Shown here piece after piece: positions 3,865 through 19,641 of a stretch of DNA of 64,000 bases; positions within the stretch are counted from its first letter, which is position 1, and each line of letters begins with the position of its first letter. Source of the stretch: Candidatus Hermodarchaeota archaeon (GTDB lineage: Archaea > Asgardarchaeota > Thorarchaeia > Thorarchaeales > Thorarchaeaceae); the NCBI GenBank assembly GCA_048885865.1, contig JBHLLF010000005.1:32001-96000 (forward strand). The letters are read 5' to 3'. The position numbers were made by a program, and so were the translations under genes. Under the pieces are notes generated by a model, which had not been told where the DNA came from, made no database searches, and was given only the letters and a program-made list of their open reading frames with translations.

Positions 3865-4794
3865 ATGTCTGTCAAGTGCTCGAAGTGTGGAAAGCCTGCA
3901 GTATATCTGAGAAGGTACACCGCCGAGCGGCTTTGCAAGGCTTGTCTGACATCTACAACACTACAAAGAGTAAGACGGACTATAAACAGAGAGAAAATGT
4001 TACTTGAAGATGATCGAATAGCTGTTGCGATCTCAGGGGGGAAGGACAGCGCAGTTCTATTGGACGTCTTGTCCCGAATCGAACAAGATTTTCCCAGTGT
4101 TGAACTAGTTCCCATTACAATTGACGAAGGAATACAGGGATATCGTGACAAAGCACTAGTAGCTGCTAAGGAATTAACAGCCAAACTGAACCTGAAACTT
4201 GAAGTGCAGGACTTTTCAAGTATCTTTGGTCGGTCATTGGATGAGATTGTGACCAGTCGTGATGATAACTCAGTGGGTCCATGCTCATACTGTGGTGTTC
4301 TAAGAAGAAGAGCTATAAACACAACAGCGAAAGAACTGGCGGCTGATGTTGTCGTTACGGGACACAATTTGGACGACGAGGCACAGACAATCATGATGAA
4401 CATGATGCGCGGTGACAGCCGTAGAATAGCTCGTACCAATAGGTCCAGAGCGAATCCAATAGATGGCCTTGTTCCTCGCGTCAAGCCCATCAAGGAGCTC
4501 TCTGAGAGGGACATCGTTGCTTATACTCATCATCTCTCACTTCCATACCATGATGTACCCTGTCCATATGCTGTAGAGGCCTATCGAAACGATATTCGTG
4601 AGTTTCTGAATCGGATGGAGCATAAGCGTCCCGGTACGCTTCTAGCGATTCTGCGATCATCTGAATCAATAGCTGAGGCATTTGAACAGAGTGCTGACGA
4701 GTCGAATCTCCAGACATGCGATACATGTGGAGATCCAAGTTCTTCAAGAATCTGCAAAGTTTGCTCAATGCTTGATGCTCTAAGAGCTGAGTGA
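3865..4794 (+). CDS. ncsA: tRNA 2-thiolation protein (NcsA/Ncs6/TtuA family)
   Basis: N- and C-terminal CxxC pairs, PP-loop SGGKDS, CSYC, GHNLDD, CPY. Confidence 0.92.
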   Translation: MSVKCSKCGKPAVYLRRYTAERLCKACLTSTTLQRVRRTINREKMLLEDDRIAVAISGGKDSAVLLDVLSRIEQDFPSVELVPITIDEGIQGYRDKALVAAKELTAKLNLKLEVQDFSSIFGRSLDEIVTSRDDNSVGPCSYCGVLRRRAINTTAKELAADVVVTGHNLDDEAQTIMMNMMRGDSRRIARTNRSRANPIDGLVPRVKPIKELSERDIVAYTHHLSLPYHDVPCPYAVEAYRNDIREFLNRMEHKRPGTLLAILRSSESIAEAFEQSADESNLQTCDTCGDPSSSRICKVCSMLDALRAE

Positions 4795-4795
4795 A

Positions 4796-5497
4796 ATGAC
4801 AAAACGACCTGAAACCCTGCATGAAACTCGAGAGGTTGTCTACGATGAAGATCACTGGAGTCTGCTAGGATCGTTGCGCGAGAAGGCATTGAAGGTTATG
4901 CAGAAGCTTGATGATGCAGGTATGAGATCTTTCACCTATGGGTCTATTGCACGCGGAGATGTACACAAGTCTTCAGACATCGACGTGATTGTGCCATATC
5001 CCGTATCAAGCTATAAAATCGAAGTGAGTATCGGGAGAGGAGTCCATAGAGAACTTGTGCAGGCAACCCCCTCAACAGTGATCAAGGGTCATATTCATCT
5101 AAGTAATGATTTGGTTGTGACTTTTCCACTCTTCAAGCTCATGCCTAGGGAAGAGGAGTTCTATCAGTGGGGTGGGCAGGTGAATATTGACCAGATTCAT
5201 GATGAGGTTCGTGTGCCAGGTGTCGACAAACGACTGGTCCTGATAGACCCTACGGAAACTGGTCATATCGAACATGGTGTCATTGGCTACGAACATGAAG
5301 TTGCCAAGAGAATTGGGGTAAGCATCGCAATTGCTCAGGAGCGTGTACGTGTGCTGAGGAGACGCAATAATGTGGGAAGAACTGGAGTGTACCTCACTAG
5401 ACCACTCTCTGAGGACGAGAGCTTTGAAACTGTGGCTAAGAGTCTGAAGGACAGTGATCCAGCTATAAGACGAACAATAGGGCGAAGAGGGGAATAG
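4796..5497 (+). CDS. Archaeal nucleotidyltransferase-domain protein
   Basis: YGSIARGD..SDID motif; RVPGVDKRL; GRTGVY. Confidence 0.85.
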   Translation: MTKRPETLHETREVVYDEDHWSLLGSLREKALKVMQKLDDAGMRSFTYGSIARGDVHKSSDIDVIVPYPVSSYKIEVSIGRGVHRELVQATPSTVIKGHIHLSNDLVVTFPLFKLMPREEEFYQWGGQVNIDQIHDEVRVPGVDKRLVLIDPTETGHIEHGVIGYEHEVAKRIGVSIAIAQERVRVLRRRNNVGRTGVYLTRPLSEDESFETVAKSLKDSDPAIRRTIGRRGE

Positions 5498-5510
5498 AGG
5501 TGCCACACTG

Positions 5511-6623
5511 ATGCGTTCAGTTCACAAGACCAAGGGAGAATCATTGCTTGTAGGCAAGATGCCAGCTGGCTGCAAAATGTGCGCTCTAGGCACCAAGATG
5601 GTCCTGTTTGTCACTGGCTTATGCGAAAGTGCCTGTTTCTACTGTCCATTATCCCAAGATAAGGCGGGAAATGATGTTGTGTTTGCTGATGAAATGCCGG
5701 TACATAATGACAATGATATCCTTGAAGAATTGGAGGCGATAGGTGCTGAAGGGGCAGGTTTTAGCGGAGGCGATCCACTCTGTCGATTACAAAGAACGCT
5801 AGGATACATTTCACTCCTAAAGGACTCTCAGGGCGATGATTTCCATATACACCTCTATACCTCTCAGTCTGATGCTGATATGCAGCAAATCAAGAACCTA
5901 TATGAAGCCGGCTTGGACGAGATTAGATTCCATCCAATGACCGATAATTGGTCTGCTGTCGAAACAGCCGTGAGTCTTGGAATGGAAGTAGGGATTGAAG
6001 TTCCAGCTATTCCAGGTGAGATTGAATTACTGAAGAAGACAGCTAAGAGAGCAGAAGCAATTGGAGTTTCATATCTAAATATCAATGAACTGGAGAGCAG
6101 TGAGACCAACTTCGAATCGCTCAGTTCCCTTGGACTAAGATTAAGAAACATGGAGTCTGCATCTATTGCAGGGAGCGCGGAGTTAGCTGAGGAAATCATC
6201 AAGTGGTCTGCAGAAGAGCTGGAAACGATTTCAGTCCACTACTGTTCAGCCCATTTCAAAGATGCTATACAGATGCGTAATCGTCTGGAACGCCGTCTTG
6301 AGAGAACCGCGAGAGAGTTTGAAGAACGTGCAGACGACGACCCTCTCCTGATACTTGGAGTGATCAGAGCGCCTTTTGGAGAAGAACTAGACAATGAAAT
6401 GCTGAGTCAGATAAGAAACGTCCTGGAATCACAATTTGATGTTCCATCAACTCAGTTGAATATCGACTTACCTAGAAGGAGAATCGAGATGGCTGGATGG
6501 ATACTTGCAGAGATTGCACAAGATCTCAGGTCATCTGTGAAGAATGGCGATGCTCTAGAGATTGGTATTGCATACGAGTATCCATCATGGGACCGTCTTC
6601 AGACGCTTTTCGACCCTCTATGA
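5511..6623 (+). CDS. Radical SAM protein (conserved archaeal family)
   Basis: CESACFYC (Cx3Cx2C), extra GCKMC, SGGDP, LDEIRFHP. Confidence 0.9.
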   Translation: MRSVHKTKGESLLVGKMPAGCKMCALGTKMVLFVTGLCESACFYCPLSQDKAGNDVVFADEMPVHNDNDILEELEAIGAEGAGFSGGDPLCRLQRTLGYISLLKDSQGDDFHIHLYTSQSDADMQQIKNLYEAGLDEIRFHPMTDNWSAVETAVSLGMEVGIEVPAIPGEIELLKKTAKRAEAIGVSYLNINELESSETNFESLSSLGLRLRNMESASIAGSAELAEEIIKWSAEELETISVHYCSAHFKDAIQMRNRLERRLERTAREFEERADDDPLLILGVIRAPFGEELDNEMLSQIRNVLESQFDVPSTQLNIDLPRRRIEMAGWILAEIAQDLRSSVKNGDALEIGIAYEYPSWDRLQTLFDPL

Positions 6624-7709
6624 TTGGTCAATCTTGAATCTCAAAATGGCAGCAACACCTCCAAGATTCTGGAGTTGGTCGCCAGCTGGATGGTCTGTGG
6701 ACACGATATGGAATTGACCGCGTGTTTTCTCGGTGTTTCGAATTAGATTGTCCATCCAATGTCGCTGCTCCTCATCGCCTTCTCTTAGCCTCTTGTCTGT
6801 AATCAGGAGATGTTCTACTGCTCCATACTGGACTGCGGCTCTTACTTCCTTATCACCATAGGCCCCAAGGCCGTCACCCTTTGCAATGTGCTCTATTAAT
6901 CCCTCAATAAGCTGCGTTTCAACCTCGAGTTTCAGACCCTCTATAGCTTTTGAGATCACTCCTCTGAACAGAATCTCTTTTGCACCTGGATATCCTATCG
7001 AGTTCAAGCTCTCAACAGATACAGGTGGTTGGTCTTTAATCTTCATTCCACGAAGGAACTCGCTAAAGTGGTCTTTCACAAATCCTGGTCCTGCAATTAT
7101 GATGATTGCTATCTCATTCTGCTCCAATTGGGAACGGATAGCAACTCCTACATTTGAGAAGAAATCCCGCATGGTGGCATCATACGCCTTCTGGTCTCCA
7201 CGCTTTCTAGATATGCTTGTTCGCACGCGAACAGCCTCTCGTATTCCAAAATCTGCAACAAGGAACAGCTCGGCAACTCCATCCTCTATTGTCACCAGCA
7301 GAGCAACCGGACTCTGAGCTTTCTTCTCTGCCTCCTTTATTCGTTCCAGCATGAAATGGGGCCAGTGCTCCTTGATTATCGTCAGGGTACTTCCTTCTTC
7401 CACATTGAATGTGTGATACGAGCCTATGTTGACTAAATCTCCGGGCCCCTCCAGAATGATGCCCTTTAGCCTCACGCGATTGGAGAATGCATGAAACATG
7501 ACATCCTCGACCTTCAAGACTAGTGTCATCGGCTTGCGCACACTATCCTGTTTTCTAGCATCCTCATCGCCAACTTTGACCCTTCGAGTCGTTCTGGAAA
7601 CAACGGTATCACCAGGACTGACTAGATTATACAAATGCCAGAGATCATCAAGGGTCTCTATCTTGAGGGCGATTTTTCCCTCTTTCAGATTGCGCTTCAA
7701 TACCTTCAC
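6618..7709 (-). CDS. pelA: mRNA surveillance protein pelota
   Basis: DDLWHLYN, YHTFNV, AGPGFVK, AYG..EV, LGGVAAILRF. Confidence 0.96.
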   Translation of the reverse strand: MKVLKRNLKEGKIALKIETLDDLWHLYNLVSPGDTVVSRTTRRVKVGDEDARKQDSVRKPMTLVLKVEDVMFHAFSNRVRLKGIILEGPGDLVNIGSYHTFNVEEGSTLTIIKEHWPHFMLERIKEAEKKAQSPVALLVTIEDGVAELFLVADFGIREAVRVRTSISRKRGDQKAYDATMRDFFSNVGVAIRSQLEQNEIAIIIIAGPGFVKDHFSEFLRGMKIKDQPPVSVESLNSIGYPGAKEILFRGVISKAIEGLKLEVETQLIEGLIEHIAKGDGLGAYGDKEVRAAVQYGAVEHLLITDKRLREGDEEQRHWMDNLIRNTEKTRGQFHIVSTDHPAGDQLQNLGGVAAILRFKIDQS

Positions 7710-7736
7710 GGTGACACCATCAAAGGAACATCTGTT

Positions 7737-9194
7737 TCAGAAGAAATAGTCTCCGTAGTTACTTTGAGAAATATTATCTCCCTGACCAACACCACGAGGA
7801 TTGTACGAATCCAAGCCCTTTGTCAATGATTCAGCTCTCTTGATATGCAACGGTTTCACGTATTCCGAGGATTCCTGGACGGCTAGGTCTCCCGCAACGC
7901 GAATCAGTCCTCCAAGCTCACGAAGTCTAAGAGTCAAAGCACTACTCGCCCCATCCAGCTTCTGTGCCATAGACTCAGCAGCTTTCAAGACCGAGATAAT
8001 CGCCTCTGTGTTTAGATGAGGAATCCTAGCATCTTCTCTCACTGTCTGAGCCATGAACCTCACGATATCTCTCGTAGTTTCCGGTGTCTTTGCCATCCAT
8101 GAGTCAAGCATAATCTCGTAGCCGTAGCCCCGTATTCGCGACCTCAGAGGTACCAATATCTTGTGCAAGTCTTCCACATTGCACGCTCCAAACAAGACAA
8201 ACCTGCAGGGCACGTCGTCCACACGGACAGCAGCTCCGGAGCTGTGAGGATTTCGTCCAGCAATTGGAAAGGTGCCATCTTGCATCGCCGTGAGCAAATG
8301 CTTTTGATACTGACCTAAGGCAGCAATCTCATCCACGTATAGAATTCCCTCGTGCGCCTCGTGAATTGCACCAGGAATCACTCTGAGATATGGTGCTTTT
8401 CCCAATGACTCTGCGCTTCCATATGGATCATGTTCAACATCACCAAGTAGCTCCACAGGACTAGCTCCGCTAGCCCTCACAAAACGGCTGGAGGCATGTG
8501 AAACCAATACATGATTTGGGGAATCTCCTGGGGGGGCCTGGGGACTAGTTGAATCGTGCACATATTGGACACTGATGGTGTCGTCCTGGGTTCTTTCATA
8601 TGTGGCAACCATAGATACTCCTTTGATTACCTCATGTTGCACAACTGTTGTTAGCGCAGGGTCATCTAACAAATCCAAGGTTCGAAAGAGTCCAGAGAAA
8701 GACGTACTGTCTGTTTCTCCAAAAGTCCAGTCACAACGTTTTATCGCATCGCACTCCATGCATACGCTCTGACTGGGCAGAGAAAGGCTTCCACATCTTG
8801 AACATCGATACCCCATCTTTACCGCTACTTCAAAAGGCGCGTTGTCTGGTCTGATGTAAATCGAGTCTAGCACAGTAGTCGGAATTCCTTCGTCCTGATT
8901 CTCGTCAATCCGCTCAATAACAACTTCCGGGCGATTAGGGCGAGAAGGATTGTGCCGCAGCGATATTTGCTCTTCAGGCTGAGGCAGGAGTGAGGCTGCA
9001 GCATTTGCTAGCATCGATTTTCCGACGCCAGGCACACCACAGAGCAAAACATGTCTCCGTTGTTTCACTGCAGAGCGCACAAGTACTACAGCCCGTTCTT
9101 GGCCTATAATCCTCTCAAAAGGGTCACTCGGCGTTGAAACTTCCTCCGTCGAGTCGATATCCTCAACTATGGCTATGTCTTCATTGAGCCTCAA
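7737..9194 (-). CDS. LonB-type AAA+ ATPase lacking the protease domain
   Basis: IIGQE, Walker A GVPGVGKS, GDVEHDPY, GAIHEAHEGILYVDE, LRSRIRGYG, LRLRELGGLIR; ORF ends with no Ser-Lys protease domain. Confidence 0.88.
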   Translation of the reverse strand: MRLNEDIAIVEDIDSTEEVSTPSDPFERIIGQERAVVLVRSAVKQRRHVLLCGVPGVGKSMLANAAASLLPQPEEQISLRHNPSRPNRPEVVIERIDENQDEGIPTTVLDSIYIRPDNAPFEVAVKMGYRCSRCGSLSLPSQSVCMECDAIKRCDWTFGETDSTSFSGLFRTLDLLDDPALTTVVQHEVIKGVSMVATYERTQDDTISVQYVHDSTSPQAPPGDSPNHVLVSHASSRFVRASGASPVELLGDVEHDPYGSAESLGKAPYLRVIPGAIHEAHEGILYVDEIAALGQYQKHLLTAMQDGTFPIAGRNPHSSGAAVRVDDVPCRFVLFGACNVEDLHKILVPLRSRIRGYGYEIMLDSWMAKTPETTRDIVRFMAQTVREDARIPHLNTEAIISVLKAAESMAQKLDGASSALTLRLRELGGLIRVAGDLAVQESSEYVKPLHIKRAESLTKGLDSYNPRGVGQGDNISQSNYGDYFF

Positions 9195-9241
9195 GTCTCT
9201 CCTGATACCGTCCTAGATGCAAATGATAACAGTGAGTATTA

Positions 9242-10525
9242 CTATTCCATCAGGTCATCGAATGTGGCTATCTGAAGACCGCGTGGGCGCTTATCGAGGT
9301 CTGCAACAGCAGCTCCAATGAGAAGTTTGACATTCTTCGTGGAAGCTGAGTCCGCAAGACGCTGGGTCACTACACCATCGAACACAATAGCATCAGCATT
9401 GTCGATGCTCTCAAGAGTCTTTGCAAGGTCTGCGACACTGCACTCTGCTACAATATTCTTTTCAGCATCAAAGACCACAGCCTTGAAGGTTTCCTTTATC
9501 TCGTCTATCTGACCCAGATACGTATCGTCTACCTCAAGTACAGGTCTACGTGGAGGCTTTTCTCTTCTCGGCTCTCGATATACCGGTCTTTCATACTCTT
9601 CGCTGGGTCGACGGTCTTCTCTTCTTGTTCTCGGTTCTCTTTTTGGTCTCTTGACGGATGTCTTCTTTCTCTCTGAGGGCTTCCTGTCGCTTACCAATGC
9701 CAATGCTTGATCAGCTGGAATCCGTGTCTGAAGAGCCTTATCAACCTCCAGCCGAGAAAGTTCTTCCACCTCTTTACCTTCCGGAGCTCTTGCTATATAG
9801 TCAATCTTGGCAACTTGCATCAGTTCTCGCAGAATCAGGTCTCCCCCTCTATCCCCGTCAAGGAATGCGATGACCTTCTTGCCACGTTTCCTTGTCAGGT
9901 CTGCAATGCTCTTTGGAATATGGGTTCCTTCCACAGCAACTGTGTTATTAATCCCATATTTCATGAGATTGAGAATATCGGCTCTTCCCTCAACAATGAT
10001 TATCTCTTTGCTTTTGGCTAGTTCTGGGCCAGCTGGGAGATTGTCAGGCCCAAACTTGGCAACGCCTCCCTTCCTTCCCTTTGTCACTGCAGTTGTAATT
10101 TCGGTAGCTCCTGGTGCAATATCCTCTTCCCATCCCTTCAGAATGCTGATTGCTCTGCTGACAACCTTCCGCCGCTTTGCGCCTCGGATATCTTCCACTT
10201 TTTCTAGGGTCACCTTAGCCGTGCAGGGTCCTACTCTGTCTACGGTTTCCAGTGACGCTGCGAGTATAGCTGTTGCTGTCTTGTTGAGAGAAACTGGAAT
10301 GACAATCTCGCCGCGACTGTGTCCGCCCTGCGACTTGATGGCAATCTGGATTCTACCAATTCTCCCTGTTCGTTGTAGCTCCCGCAGATCAAGATCCTCT
10401 CCCAAGAGGCCCTCTGTCTGTCCGAATACTGCTCCCACAACATCTGGTTTGTCTACTACACCATCGATGTCAATTTTTGCTCTTATGACGTATTTTGCAG
10501 TACTTGAATCGAAATCTGTTCCCAA
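9242..10525 (-). CDS. dnaG: Archaeal DnaG (primase-like, exosome-associated)
   Basis: GAVFGQTEGLLG, RELQRTGRIGRI, TOPRIM VEGRAD, DGDRGG; TTG start preceded by AGGAG. Confidence 0.96.
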   Translation of the reverse strand: MGTDFDSSTAKYVIRAKIDIDGVVDKPDVVGAVFGQTEGLLGEDLDLRELQRTGRIGRIQIAIKSQGGHSRGEIVIPVSLNKTATAILAASLETVDRVGPCTAKVTLEKVEDIRGAKRRKVVSRAISILKGWEEDIAPGATEITTAVTKGRKGGVAKFGPDNLPAGPELAKSKEIIIVEGRADILNLMKYGINNTVAVEGTHIPKSIADLTRKRGKKVIAFLDGDRGGDLILRELMQVAKIDYIARAPEGKEVEELSRLEVDKALQTRIPADQALALVSDRKPSERKKTSVKRPKREPRTRREDRRPSEEYERPVYREPRREKPPRRPVLEVDDTYLGQIDEIKETFKAVVFDAEKNIVAECSVADLAKTLESIDNADAIVFDGVVTQRLADSASTKNVKLLIGAAVADLDKRPRGLQIATFDDLME

Positions 10526-12952: not shown

Positions 12953-13852
12953 GTGACAATGACCTCTCCTCATCCTGATTTCATTAAGGCTGGCCGAATT
13001 GCAGCAAGAGTCCTAAAGGAAATGAGCCCTCAAGTCAAGCCTGGAGTCAAGGTTTTGAGAATCTGCACCCTTACAGAGAAGAAGATACTGGAGTATGGAG
13101 GGGGCCTAGCCTTTCCCTGTAATGTTTCTCTGAATGAGGAAGCTGCACATTATACCAGTCCCCATAATGATAGCAGGGTGTTTCCAAAAAAGGGCTTGGT
13201 CAAACTGGATATTGGTGCTCATGTCAATGGTCACCTAGTGGATACAGCTGTCACTATTGATCTAGATGGGTCCTATGAGAACTTCATCGCGGCATCAAGT
13301 TCTGCACTGGACGCCGCTATAGAAGTGATTCAGCCAGGAGTCCGTGTAGGAGAGGTTGGTGCTGCAATCGAACGAGCCATCAAGAAGCATGGTTTGCGCC
13401 CCATTCATCAGCTCTCAGGTCACCAGCTCAAACAGTGGAATCTTCATGCAGGAACGACTGTTCCCAATGTTGGTACACGCAGAGGCGCGAAGATGAATCT
13501 AGGTGAAACCTTCGCAGTGGAACCTTTCGCAACTGATGGCAATGGAACAGTGAAATCGTCACCAGAATCCTACATCTTCGCGAATGTGCTGACCAACAAG
13601 AAAAAACTGGATCGACTGACAAACCAGGTTCGCACCGCCGCACGCAAGAAGTTTGGTCCACTTCCTTGGGCATCAAGATGGCTTAGTAAGTCCCGAGTCG
13701 ATGTTGCGGCAGCACTTCATACTCTTCTCAGAGCAGGTGCAATCAGAAGCTATCCTGTGCTCATTGAGGGCAAGGGTGGTATGGTGTCTCAGTTTGAACA
13801 CAGTCTATTTGTTGGAGAAAAGGGAGCCATAGTTACAACCCTGCGCGATTAA
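12953..13852 (+). CDS. map: Type 2 methionine aminopeptidase, copy 1
   Basis: AFPCNVS, AAHYT, DIGAHVNGHLVDTA, GH..LHAG, AVEPF, QFEHS. Confidence 0.93.
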   Translation: MTMTSPHPDFIKAGRIAARVLKEMSPQVKPGVKVLRICTLTEKKILEYGGGLAFPCNVSLNEEAAHYTSPHNDSRVFPKKGLVKLDIGAHVNGHLVDTAVTIDLDGSYENFIAASSSALDAAIEVIQPGVRVGEVGAAIERAIKKHGLRPIHQLSGHQLKQWNLHAGTTVPNVGTRRGAKMNLGETFAVEPFATDGNGTVKSSPESYIFANVLTNKKKLDRLTNQVRTAARKKFGPLPWASRWLSKSRVDVAAALHTLLRAGAIRSYPVLIEGKGGMVSQFEHSLFVGEKGAIVTTLRD

Positions 13853-13916
13853 TTCTCCTGAAAGCGTGTATGAAACGTCTTAAGAACAGACATGTCAAGC
13901 AAATTCGTGATGCGTC

Positions 13917-14822
13917 ATGACGCTTGGTCCTCATCCTGACTATGTGAAGGCGGGGAAAATTGCAGCCCGTGTGCTGGATGAGGTGAGTCAAGCGGCTGTG
14001 CCCAAGACCAAGGTCATTAAACTCTGTACAATGGCTGAAAGGAAGATTGTCGACTACGGCGGTCGTCCTGCTTTTCCCTGTAACATTTGCATTGATCATA
14101 TCGCCGCTCATCGCACTTCCCCTTTGAATGATGACGCAGCAATTCCTGCCTTTGGGTTGGTGAAGATTGACATAGGTGTGCATATTGACGGACATATAGT
14201 CGATACTGCATTGACTAAGGACATGGATGGCACTCTTGAGGGATTTATCACAGCCACAGAAGATGCACTTGACGATGCTTTGGACTTGATGCGACCTGGC
14301 ATCGAACTCAGTGAAGTTGGAAAGTCAATCGAGAAAGTCATCAAGGCATATGGCCTAAGACCGATCAAGAACCTCACTGGTCATAACATTAAACGCTACA
14401 AGCTACATGGGGGGAAGACGCTTCCCAATACCAAGACACGAAGTCGAGGAAGGATAGAAGCGGGTGAATACTATGCTATCGAACCCTATGCCACAACTGG
14501 CTTCGGTGAGGTATTGGATACGGATTTCGTCTATATATTCACCAATTCCGTTCTAGATGAGCCATCGAAAGGAACCACTGAGAAACTCAGAGTGTATCTC
14601 AGAAAGAAGTATGGTCCATTACCTTTTACTGCACGCTGGATAAAATCAACGAGTTCCGAAGTGAGTCTCCTAGACGAGTTTAAGCTGCTAGTCAAATCTA
14701 AGGCAATCATCGGTCATCCGATGCAGGTAGAGAAAGGAACGCGACCTGTGAGCGTATCGGAGCATACTGTCTTCATCTCTGACAAGAAGCCCATTATTCT
14801 TACAAAGCTTAGAGAAGACTGA
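13917..14822 (+). CDS. map: Type 2 methionine aminopeptidase, copy 2
   Basis: AFPCNIC, AAHRT, DIGVHIDGHIVDTA, GH..LHGG, AIEPY, VSEHT. Confidence 0.92.
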   Translation: MTLGPHPDYVKAGKIAARVLDEVSQAAVPKTKVIKLCTMAERKIVDYGGRPAFPCNICIDHIAAHRTSPLNDDAAIPAFGLVKIDIGVHIDGHIVDTALTKDMDGTLEGFITATEDALDDALDLMRPGIELSEVGKSIEKVIKAYGLRPIKNLTGHNIKRYKLHGGKTLPNTKTRSRGRIEAGEYYAIEPYATTGFGEVLDTDFVYIFTNSVLDEPSKGTTEKLRVYLRKKYGPLPFTARWIKSTSSEVSLLDEFKLLVKSKAIIGHPMQVEKGTRPVSVSEHTVFISDKKPIILTKLRED

Positions 14823-16638: not shown

Positions 16639-17526
16639 CTATACGAATCCAATATGGCTGGCAAGGCTCTGTTTCAGAATTCTCTCAGCCTCTTCATGTT
16701 TGGTCAGGTCTGTAGCCGCCAGTGGATGAACTTCCATGTTGAAGACCTTCTCAACCACTGATGGTGCTAGGGCATTAGGCAGGTCCTGTTTATTGGCTAT
16801 CACTGTCAGAGAAGCTGTTTCTGCACAGCTCATGACTTCAGACGCCAGCTTTTGAGACTCCAAGACGTTCTTCAGAGTTGAGTCTGTCACCAACAGTATG
16901 ACATCAACATTGACTAAGCATGATTCCCAGACCTTGTTGACTTCGTCATCTCCTCCGAGATCCCATAGATCAACAGTGCAGTTTGAAATGTCCATTCCAT
17001 CAAGGCTCTCAGTGTTCATACCCATTGTGGGAATATAGACCTCGGGAGGTCTTTGTCCAAGCAGCAAGTGCATGGTGGTGGTCTTTCCTACGCCCCTAGT
17101 CCCTACTAGAGCGACCACGAGCTTAGACTCTAAGAATGGTGTCACAATCTCGGTGTATTTCTTGAACACCTTTGTGACTGACTGGTTTTCCAGTTCGCTC
17201 CTTACTGCACGACCTGCCCGGCGTATTCTATCTGTGATTATCTTGTCTGACTCTTTGCCGTCTGTGATGAGGATGACAAATAGGTCATCAGTGCACTCGT
17301 ATGCATACCATCTGCTACTATTGAAATTCCGCCGTAGCACAGATCCCTTTCTGAGTTTGGACTTTCGCTCAATGATCCACGGAGTCAGCTTTGATAGTAT
17401 CTCCTTCTCGCCATCGATTGGCCAAATTCTAGCCCACGCCTTCTTGATTTTCGGGGCAACCTTTAGCAAGATACTACCCAGGATCAATAGAATACCTTCT
17501 GTGCCATCAGATTTTTCATTCAACAT
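16639..17526 (-). CDS. Small Arf/Rab-like GTPase with N-terminal longin-like domain
   Basis: G1 GTRGVGKTT, G2 YIPT, G3 WDLGG, G4 NKQD; ~130-aa N-terminal alpha/beta domain. Confidence 0.85.
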   Translation of the reverse strand: MLNEKSDGTEGILLILGSILLKVAPKIKKAWARIWPIDGEKEILSKLTPWIIERKSKLRKGSVLRRNFNSSRWYAYECTDDLFVILITDGKESDKIITDRIRRAGRAVRSELENQSVTKVFKKYTEIVTPFLESKLVVALVGTRGVGKTTTMHLLLGQRPPEVYIPTMGMNTESLDGMDISNCTVDLWDLGGDDEVNKVWESCLVNVDVILLVTDSTLKNVLESQKLASEVMSCAETASLTVIANKQDLPNALAPSVVEKVFNMEVHPLAATDLTKHEEAERILKQSLASHIGFV

Positions 17527-17604: not shown

Positions 17605-19641
17605 CTACTCCCCCTCCCCTGACAAGGCCTTCTTCATTGATCTCACCTGTGACAGAAAACCAGTGACATCATCGTTCCAAGTCCCATCGTCAGACAGTAG
17701 ACGTTGATACAGAGTTCTGGTGTAGTTCCATAATGCCCTTGGCTGGAGGCACCGAATTGTAAGCCCCTCTTCCTGCCCCCTTGCAGGCAACTCGGCCATT
17801 AAACTATAAACGTCTTCATTTGGCATTCTGGAGAAGACAATCAGCATCTTCCCTTCATCATCAATCATTACCAGTGAAATGGGAGTGTACTCAAGGAACG
17901 CATTTGCAAGAGCATATACACTTCCAGGTGATCCCTGAACAACGGTGAACAGAGAAATAAGACTAGGCTCATCTGGTTGATACGCAATATTCACTATCTC
18001 CTTCTCCGAGAACCGCGTCAGGACTGATTTTACCTTAGCCCTAGTCAGACCCAAATAATCCATGAGCTTCTTGTCCTCAAAATCGGCTAAGTAGAAAGTG
18101 CTAGCAGCAGTATCAAGTACCTTGGCCTCATCATGATTGATTTGATGAATCTGTGTACCCTTCCATTTTCCGTGGCGTGATTTGAGCTTCCGAATTGTAC
18201 TTTTCCTTGCAACAGACTCCACAATCTTGGTTGTGGAGGTCTTCCATCCCTCATTGCTATCGAAAAGTTGGTGATTCACAACTCTTGCAGACCACGCAAC
18301 GTCCGTCACACTGGGTAGCGCTCTTCGAACACGCTCTGCAGAGTGTGGCGGCATATGCATGATCTGTAGATAAGGAGGACTCTCTCCCAATTCTCCCAGT
18401 CTGGTAATCCATGCCATATGTTTGTGGGGCCACCTATGGGCCGAACCGAAATATGCCAGAGTATGAAGGCCAATTGCACGCGTCTTGATATGTGCTCGTA
18501 GTTGTACGCCAGAACTTAGCAGAGCAAAACGGTTTATCCATGCTTTTGTGCTGCGTTTTGCAGCTGATCTACTCACAGGCAACGAATTGGCGACACTGTC
18601 AGCCTGATTGAGGTCAATAATGAATTTCCTAACACGACCATACCAACTAGGAAACATTGCGTATACTTTCTCCCAGAATATCAACCAAGGTGTTCTCTCA
18701 GCTAGTGTCGGTGAGGGGCGATCTGGGAGTTCCAGCTGTCTTCTCTCAGCCATGTTCATTAGTCGAACATACTGCGGAGGGTCCACGCCATCGATAATGC
18801 ACTGAATATGTCCCATGACGAGTGCTCGTAGAGTTGGAGTGGCATTTAGTCCTCCAAAGAAATCAACCGGATCAGATTTGGGAATCTCTCTCTTTGTAAT
18901 CCATGCAAGAAATGCCATTAGTTCTTCTCGAACATCTGATGGGAAAGATAGAGGCACCAAGGGCTCTAACGACTCCTGCATATCTCTTCCAATTTTCAGG
19001 TCTGGTATAACAACGCCCTTTATCAGCTCCGCAATCTTCTCTAGGGGAGGCGATGGTGCTTTGAGCATCCGTAGCGCATTCTCTCTAGCTCTTTCGGGAT
19101 CCTCTTGACCAAAGTATCTATTCACAGACTCGATTAGTTCCCAATCCTCCTGCAGTTCCAGGATCCCACCCTCATATTTCTGAATCATGTGACTCTCGTA
19201 TATCGTTTCTGAGCTGCTATCAGAAATCGTAAGCCAATAATTCTGGCTATCCTTTACAGGCTGCACTATGAAGATTGCCTCCTCCTTGCCGCCCAAAACC
19301 CTGCCATACCATCCCACTGTGGCTGGAGGCCAAAATGGGTCTGGCATCTGTCCCATCCCTCGTGAGTATGGTTTCTTTGTCACAAGTATCGGCTTGAGGA
19401 ATACCTCGAGCTTCTGGTCGAGCGGTTCAGCCTGACTCCTTCCATCCTTTCCGACAACGATTGTAGTCAATGGGGTGAAGTATTCGTCACCAGAACCGGC
19501 ATGGAGTACTTCTCCGGTGATGGATCTTATCATCACGCCGTCTTTTGATACTACTAGGTCTCCCTTATCTCCTGAACTACAGTAGACGGGCAAGCTTGTG
19601 AACCTAGTCCACTCTCTCAACCAGCTGCACACTCTTCCCAA
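17605..19641 (-). CDS. Large hypothetical protein with possible C-terminal wHTH/Lrp-like region
   Basis: 678-aa ORF; LMDYLGLTRAKVKSVLTRFSEKEIV looks like an HTH; start uncertain. Confidence 0.7.
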   Translation of the reverse strand: MGRVCSWLREWTRFTSLPVYCSSGDKGDLVVSKDGVMIRSITGEVLHAGSGDEYFTPLTTIVVGKDGRSQAEPLDQKLEVFLKPILVTKKPYSRGMGQMPDPFWPPATVGWYGRVLGGKEEAIFIVQPVKDSQNYWLTISDSSSETIYESHMIQKYEGGILELQEDWELIESVNRYFGQEDPERARENALRMLKAPSPPLEKIAELIKGVVIPDLKIGRDMQESLEPLVPLSFPSDVREELMAFLAWITKREIPKSDPVDFFGGLNATPTLRALVMGHIQCIIDGVDPPQYVRLMNMAERRQLELPDRPSPTLAERTPWLIFWEKVYAMFPSWYGRVRKFIIDLNQADSVANSLPVSRSAAKRSTKAWINRFALLSSGVQLRAHIKTRAIGLHTLAYFGSAHRWPHKHMAWITRLGELGESPPYLQIMHMPPHSAERVRRALPSVTDVAWSARVVNHQLFDSNEGWKTSTTKIVESVARKSTIRKLKSRHGKWKGTQIHQINHDEAKVLDTAASTFYLADFEDKKLMDYLGLTRAKVKSVLTRFSEKEIVNIAYQPDEPSLISLFTVVQGSPGSVYALANAFLEYTPISLVMIDDEGKMLIVFSRMPNEDVYSLMAELPARGQEEGLTIRCLQPRALWNYTRTLYQRLLSDDGTWNDDVTGFLSQVRSMKKALSGEGE

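Follow-up and report, generated by a model that had tools for sequence, protein, structure and literature searches.

A LonB-like AAA+ ATPase with neither a protease domain nor a membrane anchor was found between dnaG and pelota in a 64,000-nucleotide stretch (the window) of contig JBHLLF010000005.1, which belongs to a Thorarchaeia (Asgard) genome of 3.58 Mb and 87% completeness. Judging from sequence comparisons, we regard it as evenly balanced whether this protein is an ancient LonB paralogue which has lost its protease and membrane anchor and would serve the 20S proteasome as a further regulator. The three genes are encoded on the minus strand, as are all the features given below for the ATPase: dnaG (9242-10525, 427 aa; NCBIfam NF003108, 483 bits against a cut-off of 300), the ATPase gene (7737-9194, 485 aa) and pelota (6618-7709, 363 aa; TIGR00111, 290 against a cut-off of 178). 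The intergenic gaps are 47 nt between dnaG and the ATPase gene and 27 nt between the ATPase gene and pelota, as described in the initial annotation of this DNA. A putative Shine-Dalgarno-like element, AGGAG (9199-9203), was read in the sequence 4 nt 5' of the TTG start of the ATPase.

The ATPase core and its insert

All the motifs of a complete LonB-type ATPase were found to be intact, which bears out the first description of the protein. These are the Walker A motif (residues 53-60; 9015-9038), invariant in two alignments, and, located by alignment, the Walker B motif with D288 and E289 (8328-8348), the sensor-1 residue N339, the arginine-finger motif LRSRI (residues 350-354; 8133-8147) and the sensor-2 region LRELGGLIR (residues 424-432; 7899-7925). 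Pore loop-1 (HDPYG; 8379-8444) was placed by alignment to the LonB of Thermococcus onnurineus (4zpx), where Tyr258 of the ATPase stands opposite Phe216, and in that LonB the loop comprises residues 209-232 (PMC9569914). The protein matches LonB in sequence with an E-value of 2.6e-73. Its AlphaFold2 model has a mean predicted local distance difference test score (pLDDT) of 82, and a structural search with this model returned LonB as the best match (E 1.7e-32), with ComM (E 2.7e-8) and MCM also among the matches. The nearest relatives in sequence and fold are LonB, Mg-chelatase, ComM and MCM. The protein falls outside the sixteen matches of the genome scan with PF00004, to which it shows just a 22-residue Walker A match, and these comparisons place it outside the classical AAA clade of PAN and Cdc48.

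The LonB profile TIGR00764 is matched only to position 395 of 608 with a score under the cut-off, and a Pfam search of the ATPase protein gave no match to Lon_C, so that the gene does stop ahead of any protease domain as had been noted. The terminal YGDYFF was read in the sequence, and the 120 closest homologs (325-513 aa, nearly all of 470-500 aa) share the same type of end. A frameshift or assembly truncation was rejected because these homologs are similarly short with the same end.

A zinc ribbon of the form CxxC-x10-CxxC (residues 131-148; 8751-8804) occupies the site of the LonB membrane helices, again in line with the initial annotation. Its four cysteines are invariant in three alignments, the predicted model of the insert consists of strands and a zinc ribbon, and there is a weak Pfam match to zf-ChsH2 (E 0.015). 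No membrane helix was detected, as the best 19-residue hydropathy is 1.29 compared to 2.15-2.96 in fifteen full-length Asgard LonB proteins, and the insert is acidic with 9 K/R against 21 D/E residues. By these properties the insert is soluble, with a putative zinc ribbon replacing the membrane helices. A search of the ESM Atlas with the insert by itself returned no usable match. Two proteins (P0139 and P0161) form a degenerate branch of the family in which the zinc ribbon is kept, the Walker B and arginine finger are altered and the tail is absent; these are probably inactive ATPases.

Distribution of the family and search for a Lon protease partner

Among 76 genomes from the taxonomic family of the source, 72 contain the ATPase gene, as a single copy and as the sole LonB-type gene. 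The short zinc-ribbon form was also found in Freyarchaeia, in one Heimdallarchaeia family, in 86 of the 201 Thermoplasmatota genomes searched and in single records of Anstonellales, Korarchaeota and Iainarchaeota. Orthologs in cultured organisms are available in Aciduliprofundum boonei and in Methanomassiliicoccales. A quick tree built from the AAA+ core separates 42 of 43 short forms, as one group, from full-length LonB at a Shimodaira-Hasegawa-like approximate likelihood ratio test (SH-aLRT) support of 95, and for all 43 as one group the support is just 75. On this tree and the shared architecture, the short form is an old archaeal clade apart from full-length LonB, comprising Thorarchaeia, Freyarchaeia, some Heimdallarchaeia, Thermoplasmatota and some DPANN members.

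The homologs are named 'putative lon protease' or 'ATP-binding protein' at NCBI, the closest being assigned to Candidatus Thorarchaeota. ESM Atlas clusters of the same family and architecture carry the automatic label 'LonB like ATP-ase no protease domain', so the architecture has already been catalogued. We found nothing on the function of the family, its tail or its dnaG link in a literature search that reached few subscription journals, and ProEnd (PMC11475706) makes no mention of a protein of this kind in its main text. New here is the picture in Thorarchaeia, where this is the sole LonB-type gene, its tail is atypical and its link to pelota does not extend beyond the lineage.

An ATPase of this kind could be one half of a split Lon whose partner is either full-length LonB or a Lon protease domain encoded by another gene. 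Full-length LonB does occur in the same genomes as the short form in the Heimdallarchaeia family (f27) and in all five Thermoplasmatota genomes tested. In Thorarchaeia, Lon_C was not found in the source genome at its 87% completeness nor in 70 of 85 genomes of the family, and it was likewise not found in the five genomes (5/5) of f7 and f19, a further two Asgard families that carry the short form. This absence spans too many genomes for an assembly gap, even though the genomes are incomplete. Lon_C is present patchily in the other 15 of the 85 genomes as frames of about 800 aa (loci L051-L060), and the frames inspected are bacterial LonC-type proteins. The split-Lon reading, which we consider very improbable overall, was rejected for Thorarchaeia on these counts, and the search for a separate protease partner thus came out in favour of the initial annotation, most genomes having no LonB protease domain.

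Conservation of the C-terminal tail

The last 23 residues of the ATPase (463-485; 7740-7808) are predicted to form a disordered linker (pLDDT <50) ending in D-Y-F-F, the candidate tail for docking on the 20S proteasome. Disorder was also predicted for the last 17 residues of a Thermoplasmatota ortholog (pLDDT <50). Among the 120 closest homologs the tail is YFF in 102, YYF in ten, YFL in four and YYL in four, so that all of them conform to Y-[FY]-[FL], and the last four positions have an entropy of 0-0.5 bits compared to more than 3 bits in the linker. The tripeptide tabulation proposed in the initial annotation therefore gave a conserved aromatic end. The penultimate residue is Phe in the ATPase and in 88% of the Thorarchaeia homologs, with only Phe or Leu at the last position.

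Archaeal proteasome ATPases follow the pattern [LVIMGAPFYW][FY]x (Forouzan 2012, PMC3493965). In PAN-A of M. mazei the penultimate residue is naturally Phe, which activates less well than Tyr, and Trp is usable at the last position (PMC3493965). A Y-F/Y motif has been defined for the human 20S (10.1101/2021.04.28.441858). The Thorarchaeia tail agrees with both the archaeal pattern and the human Y-F/Y motif. The initial annotation, which had called the tail HbYX-like (HbYX standing for a hydrophobic residue, then Tyr, then any amino acid), is thus right for the wider published pattern but not for strict HbYX, the penultimate residue being Phe. In the controls, the pattern was found in one of twenty full-length LonB proteins and in 69 of 2618 long open reading frames (ORFs) of the source genome (2.6%).

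More canonical tails were observed in the distant orthologs. In Thermoplasmatota, 119 of 120 homologs end in a small or hydrophobic residue followed by [YF]-X, with a penultimate Tyr in 97% and a free last residue (2.2 bits), and these tails switch among G-Y-x, M-F-x and A-Y-x. All five Freyarchaeia tails are L-Y-G, and the tails of the Korarchaeota and Iainarchaeota proteins are Y-F-A and Y-F-I respectively. One full-length LonB of Aciduliprofundum sp. (L226) ends in G-Y-E.

Possible docking on the 20S proteasome

In the source genome there are genes for two alpha and two beta subunits of the 20S proteasome, for PAN and for Cdc48, and both alpha subunits retain the pocket residues equivalent to Pro17, Gly19, Glu25 and Lys66. 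In the proposed mechanism the ATPase would form a hexamer as LonB does, with substrates entering at the zinc-ribbon face, which corresponds to the membrane face in LonB. From the LonB layout, the tails would exit on the face of the former protease chamber, where the 20S would sit, and their carboxyl ends would insert into the pockets between the alpha subunits while the ATP-driven ring threads substrates from the zinc-ribbon face into the 20S.

Several observations weigh against a 20S-docking role for the Thorarchaeia protein. The genome already has PAN and Cdc48 with canonical tails, and the tail of the ATPase is unlike those of the PAN proteins of its own lineage (Hb-Y-C type or Hb-[YF]-X, 20/20). 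Its Tyr is invariant at the third position from the end and its last residue is Phe or Leu rather than free. The motif is missing in f27 (W-N-[GS], 0/7), in Anstonellales (D-V-R) and in f7 (R-Y-G). A second aromatic motif, P-Y-x-Y-W-N, lies about twelve residues before the end in Thermoplasmatota, and the f27 proteins stop right after this internal motif; this motif, and not HbYX, may be the counterpart of the ends seen in Thorarchaeia and f27. Two alignments place the Thorarchaeia tail differently relative to the Thermoplasmatota motifs, and a profile alignment gave no assignment. The tail counts come from kin and top matches that are not independent and so overstate the conservation. The 20S binding, the ATPase activity and the unfolding are all putative properties of this protein. 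When the last 36 residues were modelled in complex with three alpha subunits of the 20S, the prediction scored 0.00, which speaks neither for nor against docking.

The stronger signal for docking comes from the distant orthologs in Thermoplasmatota and Freyarchaeia, whose tails are canonical HbYX. Docking is likely to be an ancestral and widespread trait of the family, but because the Thorarchaeia tail is atypical and f27 and Anstonellales are without HbYX, it would not be universal and is less certain for the Thorarchaeia member than for the Thermoplasmatota members. The initial proposal of a soluble Lon-derived unfoldase feeding the 20S gains support from the conserved tail, from the canonical HbYX of distant orthologs and from the absence of a LonB protease domain from most genomes, whereas its further part on pelota and no-go decay is not supported.

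The two 20S alpha subunits are 42% identical (L141:1092-1844 and L142:1006-1761, on contigs C3 and C4). The more diverged of the two lies next to SBDS and the exosome genes and has altered gate-region motifs (YDMSTS and IFAAEY) that are kept in close relatives, and a mixed alpha ring may be possible. A second Cdc48 paralogue (C9:83314-85515) ends in G-Y-I, while the first ends in D-L-Y-V.

Linkage to dnaG

The pairing with dnaG is a real lead, as this gene is a deeply conserved neighbour. In 26 of 30 Thorarchaeia loci, in all six f27 loci (6/6) and in 68 of 71 Thermoplasmatota loci it is co-oriented with the ATPase gene and lies immediately upstream, and it is adjacent in none of the eight f7 and f19 loci (0/8) and in none of the fourteen full-length LonB loci (0/14). 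Putative co-transcription with dnaG weakly suggests that the substrates or an adaptor could be related to DnaG or to exosome ribonucleoproteins. DnaG is a TOPRIM protein that in other archaea serves as an RNA-binding subunit associated with the exosome. The DnaG of Sulfolobus is an exosome-bound RNA-binding protein (PMC4227792), and the exosome core genes are present in the source genome, where SBDS and a 20S alpha gene are their neighbours. Besides the Rrp41/Rrp42 pair on C4 there is a third gene of the RNase PH family, at C18:2053-2430.

The same linkage can be read as pointing to a stand-alone remodeller or chaperone working with DnaG, on the exosome cap or on RNA-protein complexes, in which case the tail would bind DnaG or another partner and not the 20S, and the Thorarchaeia YFF would be a remnant of the internal aromatic motif. 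Adjacency to dnaG spans Asgard and Thermoplasmatota and is never seen for full-length LonB, the dnaG and ATPase genes overlap by 4 nt in A. boonei, and a TOPRIM gene stands upstream of a distant family member. The internal aromatic motif tracks dnaG adjacency, being present in 119 of 120 Thermoplasmatota and all seven f27 proteins (7/7) compared to none in f7 (0/3) and f19 (0/5), and f27 combines dnaG and this motif without HbYX. However, the independent lineages are only a handful, the strict internal pattern matches none of the 120 Thorarchaeia tails (0/120), and the penultimate Tyr/Phe and free last residue of Thermoplasmatota and Freyarchaeia are left unexplained. In addition, one Thorarchaeia genus (G046, L264:4941-13655) keeps the tail unchanged with about 9 kb between dnaG and the ATPase gene. 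We consider this alternative rather unlikely, though it is partly compatible with 20S docking and not exclusive of it. The ORFs in the 9-kb gap, judged by eye, are heterodisulfide-reductase-like and oxidoreductase genes.

Also considered was a motor acting on nucleic acids in the manner of MCM or ComM, which are members of the helix-2-insert AAA+ clade with zinc fingers; it would form a primase-helicase couple with DnaG. The zinc ribbon, the dnaG linkage and the presence of ComM and MCM in the fold search are in keeping with such a motor, as are the weak binding of MCM by the DnaG of S. solfataricus (PMC4227792) and the association of dnaG with DNA-transaction genes (Berthon 2008, PMC2643942). 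On the other hand, LonB is by far the nearest match in fold and sequence, the LonB pore loop is kept and the insert is acidic. A PCNA-interacting protein (PIP) box, the PCNA-binding motif Q-x-x-[LIM]-x-x-aromatic-aromatic, was rejected as an explanation of the tail, being found in 0/120 homologs in its strict form, in 20/120 in a relaxed form and in none of the other groups. Such a motor therefore seems decidedly improbable.

The pelota neighbour

Pelota adjoins the ATPase gene in 32 of 33 Thorarchaeia loci and in none of 86 loci elsewhere. The spacer in the window (7710-7736, 27 nt) has a Shine-Dalgarno-like GGTG ahead of the pelota start, and the spacing of 26-28 nt in 29 of 33 Thorarchaeia loci together with this motif suggests one transcript in Thorarchaeia. 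A scan for sigma-70-type promoters and terminators gave results at chance level, this consensus type being unsuited to archaea.

The suggested co-transcription and the grouping of the exosome core genes with SBDS and a 20S alpha gene would fit a three-gene module in which ribosome rescue by pelota, decay by the exosome and proteasomal clearance of nascent chains are joined. Yet the opposite-strand radical SAM gene is about as well conserved (30/33 loci), the entire block being syntenic within Thorarchaeia, and in one genome (G293, L024:2938-4330) the spacer between the ATPase gene and pelota carries an insertion of about 1.36 kb, identified by eye as IS200/IS605-like (TnpB). We regard such a module as unlikely. 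The coupling to no-go mRNA decay and nascent-chain clearance that the initial annotation had drawn from pelota is not supported because pelota is adjacent only within Thorarchaeia. Of the conserved synteny with pelA and dnaG that it had raised, the dnaG part extends across Asgard and Thermoplasmatota but the pelota part is confined to Thorarchaeia. The pelota pairing is a lineage-specific gene order, and pelota would most likely be an operon passenger.

Comparison with known systems

In HslU-HslV, a Lon-related ATPase docks through a hydrophobic tail at its C-terminus on a proteasome-like protease that is a distinct protein. This system differs in being bacterial and in that HslU binds a beta-type ring directly. 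To our knowledge, the archaeal 20S ATPases described so far are all of the classical AAA clade.

Archaeal LonB (T. onnurineus, PDB 3k1j and 4zpx; TIGR00764) has in common with the ATPase the AAA+ core, the insertion site after Walker A, pore loop-1, the arginine finger and sensor-2. Unlike LonB, the ATPase is without membrane helices and without the Ser-Lys protease domain, and it has a zinc-ribbon insert, a flexible aromatic tail, a clade of its own and dnaG as its neighbour. PAN, Cdc48/VAT, AMA (PMC3493965) and PAN-2/MJ1494 (PMC11475706) are likewise protease-less ring ATPases with a flexible tail of the HbYX pattern, the ring of the ATPase being predicted. PAN, Cdc48, AMA and PAN-2 are classical-clade AAA proteins with N-domains, whereas the ATPase is of the Lon-derived helix-2-insert type and has a penultimate Phe in Thorarchaeia. 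Lon-like-Ms (Msm_1754) of Methanobrevibacter smithii is also a soluble archaeal Lon-like protein (PMC4864567), but it is a 77-kDa protein with a protease domain, bacterial relatives and less than 20% identity to LonB; on these grounds it was assigned to a different family. By its sequence features the family is neither LonB, two of whose defining features it lacks, nor PAN/Cdc48/AMA, which belong to another clade, although it probably works like the latter.

A bolder reading, which we put forward only tentatively, is that PAN, Cdc48 and AMA are joined in archaea by a fourth class of proteasome ATPase, which would be Lon-derived and of a different AAA+ clade, with its protease swapped for the 20S and a physical tie to the RNA exosome through DnaG, and which in Thorarchaeia would replace LonB altogether, with a tail of the Y-F/Y type described for the human 20S. 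If true, an unfolding motor could be moved between proteases when a tail of three residues takes the place of a domain, and a widespread missing member would be added to the archaeal proteasome network, Asgard archaea included. The dnaG pairing gives a testable handle on the long-suspected exosome-proteasome link and on the role of archaeal DnaG.

Other features of the window

A tight plus-strand run (3865-6623) consists of an NcsA/TtuA-like gene for tRNA thiolation, one for a minimal nucleotidyltransferase and the radical SAM gene; this run converges on pelota and the ends overlap by 6 nt. Tandem methionine aminopeptidase (M24) paralogues were found at 12953-14822, and the pair is kept across related genomes. 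Further along, a 678-aa ORF without a Pfam match (17605-19641) adjoins the gene at 16639-17526 for an N-terminally extended small GTPase of the Arf-like type, which is typical of Asgard genomes.

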